The notes beneath the pieces were generated by a model that saw nothing but the letters and a program-made list of their open reading frames with translations, had not been told where the DNA came from and ran no database searches. Below are positions 17,986 through 21,889 of a stretch of 64,000 bases of DNA, one piece after another. Source of the DNA: an uncultured delta proteobacterium (GTDB taxonomy: Bacteria > Desulfobacterota > Desulfobacteria > Desulfobacterales > SG8-13); the NCBI GenBank assembly GCA_963848135.1, contig CAWKCK010000012.1, forward strand, positions 30,061 through 94,060, given 5' to 3'. Position numbers and translations under genes: made by a program. Numbering within the stretch: the stretch's first letter is position 1; every line of letters starts with the position of its first letter.

Positions 17986-18967
17986 ATGAGTTTGCTATTT
18001 TTAGCGCACAGACGCTCTCGAACCCCTATTTTTATCCTAACCGGATTCATCTTACTTTTTTTTCTCGGGTGCGGCAGTGAAACCGGCTACAAACAAATCG
18101 ATTTTTCCCAGACAGTAAAAGTCGATCAACCTGAGCCGCCCGCGAGCGATAATCCAAAATTACGTGTGGCGGTTGCCGCCATGATTTCCCCGAAGGAAAC
18201 CCTATCCTATTATCGGGATCTTCTCGATTATATCGGCCGAAAACTCGGCACCGACATTACACTGATCCAGCGCCGAACTTACAGTGAGATAAACGAGCTC
18301 TTTCCCAAAGGGGAAATCGACCTGGCATTTATTTGCACGGGTCCGTATGCCGTTGGCAAGGAAGTCTTTGGGTTCGATGGGCTGGCAACACCTGTGGTTC
18401 GGGGAGAACCCTTCTACCAGAGTTATCTCATTGTACATAAGGACAAAGGTTTTAAGAGCCTTTCGGATTTGGAAGGGCGCGTGTTCGCTTTCACCGATCC
18501 AGAGTCAAACACCGGCGCATTGGTGCCGAAATTTTGGTTGATGGAACGCAACCAAACCCCCGAAACTTTTTTCAGGGAAGTCAATTTTACATACAGCCAT
18601 GACAATTCGATTCTGGCCGTTGCCAAAGGTCTTGTCGACGGCGCAGCGGTCGACGGACACTTGTGGGAATATTATAATCAGAGGAATCCTTTCTACACCT
18701 CGATGACGCGAGTCATTAAAAAATCGAGACCTTTTGGGAGTCCGCCTTTAGTGGGCCTCCGCGTATCTTTCCGTTCATGTGAAGAAACAAATTCGACAAC
18801 TCCTTTTGACGATGCACCAGGAAGCCGAAGGGCGCGAAATTCTTGGTGAGCTCATGATCGACCGGTTCATGGCGCCCGAGGATTCCTGGTATGAACCCGT
18901 AAAGGAGATTTACCGGCAAGTACTTTCTAATCCCCTTAACCGGCATGATGAAACCGAAAAGTCTTAA
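17986..18967 (+). CDS. PhnD-family periplasmic oxyanion-binding lipoprotein, AioX/ArxX-like (frameshift near 18750)
   Basis: Lipobox-like FLGC; LIQRRTYSEIN; DLAFICTGPY with the Cys equivalent to the AioX As(III) ligand; DPESNTG; YSHDNSI; tail is in ORF 18779..18967. Confidence 0.88.
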
Positions 18968-21173
18968 AAATACGCTTCTCCTCACCGTAGCGATTCTTGT
19001 GGTCATCAGCGGGCTGATTATTTCGCAGATCGTCACCCATCGCTATAGTGTCAGCTTGATCGAAGGGGCTGTCGCCCGGGCGGAGAATATCGCCCATAGC
19101 CTGAGCCTCGATTCCGCCGACACTATTTTACTCAATGATCGCGTCGGATTGCAAAAACTCCTGGACGATCAAATGATCAGCTCGCCGGACGTCGCCTATA
19201 TCTTTGTCGTCAAAAACGGCAGAGTGCTCAGCCATACATTTACCGGCGGGGTACCGGTTCAACTCATAGATGCTAATTCTGTATCAGACGGTGACAGCCA
19301 GCACCTCGAAAAGTTTGTCTCCGAAAATAACGATCATTTTCTTGATATTGCCTGGCCTATATTCGGCGGCAAAGCCGGTGTCCTGCGGCTGGGTCTTTCA
19401 GAGGCACCCTACCGGGCGCAAGTAAGGGATTTGTGGCTCCAGATGAGCTTGATTTCCTTCGGTATCTTGCTGCTATCCCTATTGGTCAGCCACCTGTTCA
19501 TACACCGGTTAACTCAACCTCTTATCAAGCTGGCGAATGCGGCCGAGAAGATCGATGAAGGGAATCTCGATTCCGAAATCAGCGTGCAAGGCCGAACTGA
19601 GGTGACCAGGCTGGCGACGGCCTTCAACCGGATGCTCGTCCGACTGAACGACTACACCGCGAGGCTTCAGGACACCAACTGCCGTTTGGAAGTTCAACAC
19701 TGCGACCTCGACAAGGCCCACCAGCGCATGACCACGGCCCTTTCGATCTCCCGGGAAGTATCCGCCCTGCCGAGCCTGTGCGACCTGTCCGATTATCTCC
19801 TGAAGGCTTTGGGCAATATCGTTGAATGCCGCAACATGGCGCTGATGGTTATCAGGGGTGAGGATGCCGACCTATTTCTGTCAACCGGGAAAAAAGTTGG
19901 GCCCACAACAGCAAACTCTTATGCTCCGGTTGTTGATAAAATTGTCTCACTCATCTCGGTCGGATTTTTCCGAAAGAAAGATTTCCCTGACATGATGTTG
20001 CCGGAAAACATGCGAAAAGCAGAAAAAATCGCCGTGTTTCCCCTCCAGCATCGTGGGCAGACATCAGGCGCCTTGATTATTGGATGCCCGGGGGAATGCA
20101 AATGCGTCAATAAAGACCTCGAGGTCATCGAACTCATCCTCCAGCAAACTGCCGGGGCTATACACCGCGCCGCTCTGAATGAAGAAGAAGTGCGCAATCT
20201 CAAAGGGCGCGTGGACGCTATCTCCGGCTTCGACGAATTGGTGGGTCGAGACCCCAAACTTCAGGTCATTTACAAGCTTATCGAGGACGTTGCCCCAACC
20301 GATGCCACTGTATTGATTCAAGGCGAAAGTGGTACCGGTAAAGAATTGGTCGCTCGCGCCATACACCGCGTCAGTCATCGCAATGGCAAACCCTTTGTGG
20401 TGATCAATTGCTCGGCTTATCCGAAGACTTTACTGGAAAGTGAACTGTTCGGTCACGAAAAAGGGGCGTTTACCGGTGCTTTGCGTAGAAAAAAAGGTCG
20501 ATTCGAGCTGGCCGACGACGGGACTGTATTTTTAGACGAAATTGGAGAGATATCTGCCTCGGCCCAGATCAAATTGCTTAGGGTTTTGCAGAGTCACAAA
20601 TTTGAGCGCGTCGGCGGAGAAGATTCGATAGGCGTAAATGTCCGGATACTGGCGGCCACCAACAAGGATCTACTTAAGGAGGTCAATGCCGGTCGTTTTC
20701 GCGAGGATTTATATTATCGATTAAACGTCATCCCTATCAATTTACCCCCTCTCCGGGAGCGCGCCAACGACATACCGCTTTTGGCCCGCTTTTTTGTTGA
20801 CCAGTTTAGCAAAGAACAGGGTAAACCCGTGGAGAAAATCAGCTCTGAGGCCATGCGCAGGCTTCTTGGATATCTCTGGCCGGGGAATGTGCGTGAACTG
20901 GAAAACAGTATTGAACATGGGGTTGTGCTCGCTAAAAACTTCCAGATTGAAGTATCCGATCTGCCTGCGTCCGTCATTGAAGATGCCATCGAAGAACTGG
21001 ACGTTGCCAAACAGAAACAGACTATCATCGAAAACGAAGCACTTTTGGTCCGCGAAGTATTGGAGAGTTGTGACTGGAACAAAACAACGGCTGCCTCCCG
21101 TCTGGGAATCAGCCGAAGCACCCTTTACGAAAAACTGAAAAAATATCAAATCCGCAAGCCCACCATTCATTGA
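18945..21173 (+). CDS. Membrane-anchored sigma54-dependent activator (TM-periplasmic domain-TM-HAMP-GAF-like-AAA+-Fis HTH)
   Basis: Two hydrophobic segments; HAMP ([17 protein letters not shown]...[12 protein letters not shown]); [54 protein letters not shown]; single intact 742-aa ORF. Confidence 0.93.
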
Positions 21174-21873
21174 ACATTTAGGAGTCCACATTCCCTTTAC
21201 CGAGCGCTACCCACATGGTGCTTGTATCCAGTTCCTTTTTAAAAAAACTCCAGTAAAATTCCTAATCCACCTTAACCCGGCAATTTCACCAATCGGAAGT
21301 TTCTATAGCCAAGGTATTTCGAGGTGATGCTCCAGTAGTCTACCGGGATCTTCGAATAACCCAGGGCCATGGAATCTTCGGTTGACCCCAAGAGTGAAAT
21401 CTTTTCATCTCTTTCTTTAGATTTTCGGGCGGTACAAAGTGTCCATCGGTTATACGGTTCATGAGTTTGACCAATGCCTCGATATTCATCTTTTTTTGCT
21501 CGGTGAAAAGATTTCATGAAATATTCGGGTTAAGCTACTTTTCCACGGTTTTTTGTCGGTGGTCAGAAAAAAAACGATTTCCAAGACGATATCATCGTTT
21601 GTCCGGTAATGTTGATACACATCATTCGAATTCAGGAACGATATAATTATCTGGAATATATGTTGAATATTTTTAGCCGGATTTCACCGTTCGATTTCCG
21701 GACGCTTCGACCCGTTTAATCCCTTCATACGTCTCCTATTTTTCAGCCCCCATCGTGTCGGCCTTCGGTTTACACAAATGAGTTCAGTAGAAATAACAGT
21801 TAAATTTAAGATAGTTATAATCCTATTGGTGTTTTACTACCTAATCTTCTTTTCGGTAATTTCGGTGCGATAC

Positions 21874-21889
21874 TGGTACACTGATTGCT
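21874..21889 (+). promoter_or_regulatory. Sigma54 (-24/-12) promoter upstream of the arr operon
   Basis: TGGTAC-ACTGA-TTGCT matches TGGCAC-N5-TTGC; AT-rich tract upstream. Confidence 0.85.

Follow-up and report, generated by a model that had tools for sequence, protein, structure and literature searches.

A binding-protein gene and a membrane-anchored sigma-54 activator gene upstream of arr genes

We studied a stretch of 64,000 nucleotides (nt) from an uncultured delta proteobacterium (contig CAWKCK010000012.1 of assembly GCA_963848135.1), hereafter the window, and in it a putative regulatory module made up of an arrX-like gene for a PhnD-family lipoprotein (17986..18966) and the gene of a membrane-anchored sigma-54 enhancer-binding protein (18945..21173). 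Both genes lie on the forward strand, as do the candidate enhancer, the sigma-54 promoter, the small receiver gene and the genes of an arsenate respiratory reductase (arr) that follow them.

The activator open reading frame (ORF) is open throughout and encodes 742 amino acids (aa). Hydropathy places transmembrane (TM) spans at residues ~10-31 (TM1, 18972-19037) and ~163-186 (TM2, 19431-19502), with a periplasmic sCache_3_2-like domain between them (residues 32-162, 19038..19430). The name of this domain comes from homologues: the window protein gave no match to the sCache_3_2 profile at E ≤ 0.01, 9 of 46 family members did (best E 3.4e-9), and homologous kinases match the profile over the same residues. 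TM2 leads into a HAMP domain (residues 184-235, 19494..19649; Pfam HAMP, 53.4 bits), found in 46/46 members, and then into a GAF domain (about residues 270-412, 19752..20180) that lies between long signalling helices. In an AlphaFold2 (AF2) model of residues 231-430, built from a 52-row alignment, this part forms a six-stranded sheet preceded and followed by a long helix, with a predicted local distance difference test score (pLDDT) of 81.7; Foldseek matched it to GAF structures at E 5e-7 to 1e-5 and probability 1.0, and Pfam GAF_2 was matched directly by 10 of the 46 members. The remainder of the protein (20238..21146) is a sigma-54 AAA+ domain with an AAA lid and a Fis-type helix-turn-helix (HTH): Pfam Sigma54_activat covers residues 432-598 with 240.5 bits (cut-off 20.2), AAA_lid_14 scores 89.5 bits and HTH_8 covers residues 700-734 (21042-21146) with 53.4 bits. 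NifA and NorR are among the best full-length NCBIfam matches, owing to the AAA+ part. The AAA+ domain carries the GAFTGA loop (20463-20480), and the genome contains rpoN (C18:65942-66418). Together with the HTH and with the -24/-12 promoter and enhancer described below, these are the features of a bacterial enhancer-binding protein, for which DNA binding and activation are predicted.

No Pfam match to HisKA, HATPase_c or Response_reg was obtained in the 742-aa activator at E ≤ 0.01, and the protein corresponds neither to the kinase (S) nor to the receiver-fused regulator (R) of ArrXSR or AioXSR. The original prediction, made from the letters of the DNA and translated ORFs, had described a single intact ORF with this domain order and without kinase or receiver parts, and Pfam, hydropathy, AF2 and Foldseek agree with it on each of these points.

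That prediction had also taken sensor and sigma-54 output to be fused in one natural polypeptide, and the fusion indeed recurs widely. The activator occurs in three copies in the assembly itself (100, 97 and 88% identity across the first 430 aa). The same 430 aa retrieved 353 database clusters at E ≤ 1e-3; among the matches listed, 119 of 120 combine HAMP with Sigma54_activat and most are ~740 aa long. A full-length match at E ≤ 1e-80 was present in 12 of 41 related genomes, and aligning the N-terminus only yielded 76 loci in species-representative genomes, nearly all of them metagenome-assembled genomes (MAGs) of Desulfobacterota by title, plus one of Anaerolineales. We rejected an assembly chimera, because the fusion is carried by the three copies, the database relatives, the related genomes and the 76 loci.

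Kinases and other proteins that share the sensor part

A profile search of 1.84 billion representatives returned 451 proteins at E ≤ 1e-30, and we scanned ten of these with Pfam. Four were kinases of the order sCache_3_2-HAMP-GAF-HisKA_3-HATPase that align with the activator over ~406 residues; the others were two PAS kinases, one GGDEF-EAL protein, one protein with a LuxR-type HTH and two activators. Weaker N-terminal matches in related genomes were sCache_3_2-HAMP-PAS-HisKA-HATPase kinases that adjoin PhnD-like genes. One such locus (L091) has a PhnD-like gene, a kinase and then a REC-AAA+ regulator, the classical layout of binding protein, sensor kinase and regulator (X-S-R), and the N-terminus of its kinase is homologous to that of the activator. 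The same sensor-HAMP-GAF front thus occurs on other outputs, so that the activator looks like an output swap on a common chassis. In P0190, a protein of 809 aa from the profile search, the same sCache_3_2-HAMP sensor is joined through PAS-GAF-PAS to a LuxR-type HTH, which makes it another membrane-anchored one-component transcription factor.

The ArrX-like binding protein

The binding-protein ORF starts at 17986 with a signal peptide that ends in the lipobox-like sequence FFLGC, scores 169 bits against Pfam Phosphonate-bd and contains the motif DLAFICTGPY, in which the Cys codon of FICTGPY occupies 18334-18336. As assembled, the ORF stops at 18849, but three-frame translation and the map of indels against a sister contig of the same assembly (C13, see below) show that the conserved C-terminus (…HVKKQIRQLLL…IDRF…) is read on in the +1 frame until the stop codon 18964-18966; the window has an extra G near 18753 (GGG, against GG in C13). 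The overlap of this gene with the activator gene, part of the original prediction, is therefore real only in the +1 frame, where it amounts to 22 nt counted from the activator ATG at 18945. A recoded TGA at 18847 was rejected, given that the C-terminus continues in the +1 frame and one extra G explains the stop.

The protein had been called AioX-like. Its PhnD family, lipobox and cysteine motif hold, but the intact 326-aa copies on the sister contigs match ArrX in the PDB (6x6b, E 3e-59) better than AioX (6esk, 6esv and 8ed5, ~1e-46), which places the protein, by sequence similarity, nearer to ArrX, an arsenate binder, than to AioX. It belongs to the AioX/ArxX/ArrX subfamily with a pocket cysteine, C117, that is invariant in 46 sequences, and its RTY, FIC, YQSY, DPxSNTG, YSHDN and VDG segments align with AioX pocket motifs and vary little or not at all among 46 family members. 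Badilla et al. (PMC5908839) list the pocket residues of AioX, report that ArrX of Chrysiogenes arsenatis binds arsenate with a Kd of ~1 uM, and describe AioX, ArxX and ArrX as sharing a pocket while differing in specificity, which was shown by calorimetry only. The greater similarity to ArrX makes arsenate a candidate ligand of our protein, but the pocket residues are common to all three subtypes.

A PhnD-like gene ends at the activator start in 62 of the 66 loci with at least 900 nt of upstream sequence. This bears on the possibility that the sCache-like domain binds a small ligand itself, as Cache domains commonly do, while the PhnD-type protein scavenges or buffers the oxyanion and never docks. 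The 4/66 loci that have the activator and no binding-protein gene speak for it, as does the general habit of Cache domains just mentioned. Nevertheless, we hold it to be highly improbable: the two genes overlap and co-occur with the frequency given above, the part of the window that was annotated showed neither permease nor ATPase genes of an ABC transporter, the homologous sensor kinases are paired with PhnD-like genes as well, and AioX, ArxX and ArrX are characterised (PMC5908839) as sensors and not as transport proteins.

The sigma-54 promoter and a candidate enhancer

The sequence TGGTAC-N5-TTGCT at 21874..21889 is a sigma-54 promoter of the -24/-12 type. Counting a motif as present when at least 9 of the 11 specified bases agree, we found it within 800 nt after the activator gene in 50/62 loci, compared with 1/62 on the opposite strand, 0/62 in coding sequence and 6/62 in shuffles. 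A candidate enhancer, or upstream activating sequence, lies at 21601..21703, so that enhancer and promoter sit about 0.5-0.7 kb 3' of the activator gene. It was outlined by conserved blocks and enriched hexamers: an imperfect palindrome, GTTCGATTTCCGGAC, occupies 21689-21703 and precedes the -24 element by about 170-185 nt; it is accompanied by GTCCGG at 21601-21606 and by a degenerate copy near 21631-21640, and these boxes fall in blocks that the alignment shows to be conserved with the two sister contigs and with the closest loci (L013 and L014). The hexamers most enriched upstream of the promoter across the family were CCGGAC (28 of 50 regions; 3.3 in shuffles) and GTCCGA (27 of 50; 4.6 in shuffles), and they often recur in the form GTCCG(A/G)-N3-(T/C)CGGAC at -165 to -190. 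Scans of 17200-22400 for sigma-70 promoters, terminators and inverted repeats gave nothing usable above background.

An insert of ~265 nt directly after the activator stop (21174-~21440) is present in the window and in both sister contigs and is absent from L013 and L014. An antisense ORF of 81 aa in this insert (21272..21517) had no Pfam match.

A stand-alone receiver heads the operon

The promoter had been described as facing arrABCD. It does, but the first ORF behind it, ahead of arrA, encodes a receiver of 127 aa (21961..22344, with a GTG start behind GAGG), and arrA, arrB and arrC are fragmented in the window. The receiver scores 26.6 bits against Pfam Response_reg, under the cut-off of 30.2. 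Its AF2 model (pLDDT 89.6) has the (beta-alpha)5 order of strands and helices, and Foldseek returned TM-scores of 0.7-0.83 with the receiver of the NtrC-family regulator HupR as the best structural match. The pocket residues D53 (46/49 homologues), D55 (49/49), S80 (49/49) and K102 (42/49) are conserved, K102-P103 is kept, and there are two further conserved motifs, HPEL (H85-P86-E-L) and Ala-Cys (A98-C99). The fold, the acidic pocket, the Asp, the Ser/Thr and the Lys are those of a receiver domain, which may be phosphorylated. A homologue follows the activator in 48 of the 60 loci with at least 900 nt downstream; the genes of the loci were called crudely, as longest ORFs, so that absent ORFs may be miscalls. 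Dozens of independent MAG loci share the gene pair, the promoter motif and the small ORF, which is more than chance would give.

The small protein may descend from an ancestral response regulator whose receiver became detached. Because it is encoded behind the sigma-54 promoter its synthesis would follow activation, as expected of a feedback element more than of a primary input, and the induced receiver probably feeds back on the AAA+ ring. The statement of the original prediction that activation proceeds without phosphorylation is consequently not secure: there is no kinase at the locus, but a receiver with all canonical phospho-acceptor residues heads the sigma-54 operon. The system would not be kinase-free at all if an unlinked histidine kinase phosphorylated this receiver and the phosphorylated form were required to switch the activator, which would make the pair a split response regulator with a co-sensor. 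The quality of the receiver model, its match to HupR, the conserved pocket, its presence in most loci and the 94 HATPase_c matches in the genome are in keeping with such an arrangement. On the other hand, none of those 94 matches falls within ~27 kb of the activator gene or on the sister contigs, the nearest in the window being at ~49.05 kb; the receiver comes after the promoter it would have to help to activate; its Pfam score is below the cut-off; and 12/60 loci show no such ORF, with the crude calling just mentioned. We regard the requirement for an unlinked kinase as very unlikely.

Conserved cysteines in the GAF domain

The GAF domain contains four conserved cysteines, C295 (19827-19829) and the three of C381-P-x-x-C385-x-C387 (20085-20105). 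Across 46-52 family members C381 never varies, and at least 90% of them retain C295, C385 and C387, with the consensus G-C-P-x-x-C-x-C. The CPxxCxC motif was found in 5 of the 7 activators compared and in none of 8 related kinases with this GAF domain, and is thus a derived feature of the activator family. C295 and CPxxCxC form a candidate site for As(III), a metal or an iron-sulfur (Fe-S) cluster. The cysteines probably add a second, cytoplasmic input, namely redox state, an Fe-S cluster or As(III).

A stronger version of this idea is that the main signal is cytoplasmic: the cysteines would bind As(III) or an Fe-S cluster, or report a redox signal, and gate the AAA+ domain, with ArrX and the periplasmic domain merely tuning or localising the protein. 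Other sigma-54 activators are governed by Cys-bound Fe-S clusters on GAF or PAS domains, VnfA being one that is controlled by such a GAF domain. OrpR (PMC8359166) is a further sigma-54 activator under the control of a GAF or PAS domain with a Cys-bound Fe-S cluster. The conservation of the four cysteines and their absence from the kinases also favour a main input from the cytoplasm. However, the periplasmic domain and the binding-protein gene are equally conserved, which would be hard to explain if both were signal-free, and the cysteines are kept in members that precede non-arsenic operons. We therefore consider a mainly cytoplasmic signal quite unlikely.

The arr operon, its surroundings and the state of the assembly

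Behind the receiver gene lie arrA, for the Mo subunit of the arsenate respiratory reductase (22435..25030), arrB and arrC, for the 4Fe-4S subunit and the NrfD-type membrane subunit (25031..26871), and then arrD, for a TorD/DmsD-type chaperone, an FmdE-like gene and a gene with a MoCF_biosynth domain (27030..29445). The last three are open, and arrA, identified through Pfam fragments, is split into at least 8 ORF fragments. Genes for MobB and MoeA close the downstream order. The ArrA encoded on the second sister contig (C14) gave 1160.8 bits over residues 58-859 with the PDB ArrA 6cz7 and 1319.5 bits with the NCBIfam ArrA model, its best match by far, under the equivalog cut-off of 1600; ArrB reached 325.8 bits, below the NCBIfam cut-off of 450.

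Upstream, and divergent from the module, is an arsR-type repressor gene on the reverse strand (17281..17628), whose C13 copy matches Pfam HTH_5 of the arsR family at E 1.6e-18. Beyond it are ArsP permease fragments and Acr3-type (SBF), thioredoxin and DsbD-type genes; ArsP_1 was matched at E 1.2e-70 by an intact 467-aa ORF on C13, and the fragments of the window match ArsP_1 and SBF. With arr downstream and arsR, ArsP, Acr3-type, thioredoxin and DsbD-type genes upstream, the locus is an arsenic island. The Acr3-type and ArsP permease genes (12239-17011) are likewise split into fragments in the window.

The genes arrD, FmdE-like and MoCF co-occur with arr and with TtrA-like operons in other loci. 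The FmdE-like protein, with a DksA/TraR-type zinc finger, and the MoCF_biosynth protein (window 27608-29445) accompany these operons at 60-92% identity, and the pair was also seen in L025, L026, L055, L060, L071 and L084. They may be dedicated cofactor-insertion helpers.

The host assembly comprises 6.03 Mb in 18 contigs, and two short sister contigs parallel the island at 89-99% identity: C13 (29340 nt) corresponds to window positions 12254-39035 and C14 (30614 nt) to 9748-37580. Both carry all genes intact, with a binding protein of 326 aa, an activator of 742 or 763 aa, a receiver of 127 aa, ArrA of 800 aa (C13) or 860 aa (C14), ArrB of 242, ArrC of 371 and ArrD of 216 aa. Between the window and C13 we counted 84 indel events over 18.6 kb. 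They are distributed unevenly: 25 fall in arrA, six in arrC, five in arrD, two in arrB and one in arrX, and none in the activator, receiver or MoCF genes. Most of the events in these genes are deletions of 1-2 nt outside homopolymers. The synonymous to non-synonymous codon differences were 24:5 for arrX, 33:14 for the activator, 5:2 for the receiver and 166:89 for arrA, indicating that arrX, the activator and the receiver are under purifying selection. C13 and C14 are probably co-assembled and co-binned strain haplotypes of one region of ~27-30 kb. IS-flanked repeats were rejected as an explanation of the two contigs, since no other part of the genome resembles their short unique ends.

The frameshift in arrX and the shattered arrABC of the window are most likely the poor consensus of one of three co-assembled haplotypes. 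Alternatively, they could be real pseudogenes of a decaying island, in which case the system would be dead in this genome copy. The many short indels in arrX, arrA, arrB and arrC, mostly deletions outside homopolymers, are what decay might leave, and arrA has relatively more non-synonymous differences than the regulator genes. Decay would, however, have spared the activator, receiver and MoCF genes entirely, and synonymous changes still dominate in arrA. Moreover, alternative haplotypes such as C13 and C14 are the setting in which long-read consensus errors cluster, and in no public sequencing run did the share of words sampled from the arrA stretch (22345-25020) exceed 7%. We judge real decay to be unlikely, though it is a serious contender.

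Different respiratory operons lie downstream of the module

Of the 72 loci with an activator match, 18 were too short and 54 were classed by their downstream operon. An arr operon follows in 21, with ArrA at 59-93% identity. Ten loci have a B-C-A molybdoenzyme whose best match is TtrA, at 494 bits and far under the cut-off, six have a Psr/Phs-like enzyme with multihaem cytochromes, 11 have a multihaem cytochrome or cytochrome b operon, and six fell into other classes. The linkage of homologues to arsenic genes, which bears on the arsenic role first proposed, is hence a partial one: the 21 arr loci are in line with it, but 33/54 precede other respiratory operons, and the module family is not arsenic-specific.

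We examined how the cargo relates to the phylogeny of the activator with a quick tree of 46 N-termini, which left out 32 of the 76 loci that had no stop-free full N-terminus or no full-length match to the binding protein. The arr label needs 10 changes on this tree, and arr-linked activators are sisters (support 100) of Psr-like- or TtrA-like-linked ones of other species. Within such a pair, identity is 60-83% for the activator N-termini and 69-87% for the binding proteins, whose pocket motifs do not differ. Near-orthologous modules with different cargo in sister species were seen in L052/L059, L047/L058, L022/L027 and L030/L033, with arr on one side and, on the other, either a TtrA-like enzyme or a Psr-like one accompanied by multihaem cytochromes. 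The cargo enzymes of these sister modules are uncharacterised, and their scores are far below the curated PhsA and TtrA cut-offs. Five non-arr genomes with one or two copies of the module contained no ArrA above 30% identity to the query. Only two columns of the binding protein split arr-linked members from the rest, and loosely so (P142 versus H, and H225 versus L). Either a few residues retune the ligand, or the other cargo enzymes respond to the same kind of oxyanion.

Relation to known regulatory systems

Sigma-54 activators are textbook soluble proteins under the control of a receiver or of a cytoplasmic ligand domain, and the control of arsenic respiration and oxidation is thought to need a binding protein, a kinase and a response regulator. 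The module has much in common with ArrXSR, AioXSR and ArxXSR (Chrysiogenes arsenatis, Rhizobium NT-26 and Alkalilimnicola): a binding protein of the same PhnD subfamily, a transmembrane sensor with a periplasmic domain and HAMP, and a sigma-54 AAA+ output with a Fis-type HTH. It differs in that the sensor has no HisKA/HATPase part and the activator no N-terminal receiver, the two being one polypeptide joined through GAF, while the sole remaining receiver has a small ORF of its own, located behind the promoter. According to PMC5908839, arrXSR is the known regulatory set, and RpoN-type promoters are reported for aio and arx while none was detectable upstream of arrAB in C. arsenatis.

The nearest relatives that are not activators are the sCache_3_2-HAMP-GAF-HisKA_3-HATPase kinases, which are uncharacterised; their N-terminal ~406 residues align whole, and they carry a NarL-type kinase core instead of AAA+ and HTH. 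From the side of the output, the activator resembles NorR, FhlA, NifA and VnfA, in which a GAF domain lies directly upstream of AAA+ and presumably represses it pending a signal. Those proteins are soluble and sense cytoplasmic ligands without phosphorylation, whereas the present activator has two membrane spans, a periplasmic domain, HAMP and a partner binding protein. Proteins such as ToxR, CadC and TcpP also sense outside and bind DNA inside with one membrane-anchored polypeptide and no phosphorelay, but they are winged-helix activators of the sigma-70 type with one membrane span, unlike an ATP-driven AAA+ ring that acts on sigma-54 from a distant enhancer. Finally, in TorT/TorS and LuxP/LuxQ a periplasmic binding protein docks on the sensor and is the real ligand receptor, often for a molybdoenzyme respiratory operon; in contrast to the present activator, these pairs signal through a kinase.

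We searched the full-text literature, with subscription journals and supplements outside the search, and found no account of a sigma-54 activator of TM-HAMP-GAF type with ArrX as its partner; nor is there one in the accessible parts of PMC5908839, PMC13444090, PMC7031245, PMC4641369, PMC5744179 and PMC10599522. The original prediction, which knew of no characterised example, agrees with this result. Within the literature searched the architecture is undescribed, and it relates both to X-S-R arsenic sensing and to GAF-type one-component sigma-54 activators.

A proposed kinase-free route from periplasmic sensing to sigma-54 transcription

Taken together, we consider it fairly probable that the module is the regulatory front end of the arr island, a binding protein and a one-component membrane activator that replace ArrS/ArrR without a kinase. 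By analogy with what is thought for AioX and ArrX on AioS and ArrS, arsenate-loaded ArrX would dock on the periplasmic sCache-like domain of a dimeric activator. The change would be relayed by HAMP and by the signalling helices that flank GAF and would free the AAA+ domains from an inactive dimer, after which they could assemble at the enhancer and remodel the sigma-54 polymerase. Sensing would in this way reach the output without His-Asp phosphotransfer, with the GAF cysteines as a probable added cytoplasmic input and the induced receiver as a probable feedback on the AAA+ ring.

Several points weigh against this reading. As assembled in the window, arrX and arrABC are broken. The module includes the conserved receiver, whose phospho-acceptor pocket (D53/D55, S80, K102) is intact, so that an unlinked kinase could still be involved. 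Activator phylogeny and target operon do not run in parallel, and some members, perhaps even this one, may therefore have a ligand other than arsenate. A membrane-tethered AAA+ hexamer acting on DNA had no studied precedent in the literature searched. Lastly, the loci without an adjacent PhnD-like gene are L064, L068, L078 and L065, and three of these belong to the cytochrome class.

If the proposed design is correct, it dispenses with the kinase step, anchors an AAA+ activator in the membrane and couples periplasmic sensing directly to sigma-54 transcription. It also raises the questions of how a dimeric HAMP receptor drives the assembly of a hexamer and how a membrane-bound ring reaches its enhancer. 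In practical terms, the two genes could serve as a compact chassis for an arsenate biosensor, and the trio of arrX, activator and receiver as a marker for arsenate reducers, and possibly for new oxyanion reductases, in Desulfobacterota of sediment and soil, where arsenate reducers matter for the release of arsenic into groundwater.

More tentatively, and as a proposal that is plausible but short of probable, the whole family may consist of sigma-54 activators that are their own transmembrane receptors, with docking of an oxyanion-binding protein on the sCache-like domain, HAMP and GAF helices that switch the assembly of the AAA+ ring at the membrane, no phosphotransfer, an As(III) or redox input through a derived site of three or four cysteines in the GAF domain and feedback by the receiver as a remnant of the ancestral response regulator. 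Such a module would be portable over at least four kinds of operon that carry it, namely Arr, TtrA-like, Psr-like with multihaem cytochromes, and cytochrome/cytochrome b, which are swapped even between sister species. Some of the cargo enzymes that are so far unstudied may then also act on oxyanions of the arsenic type.

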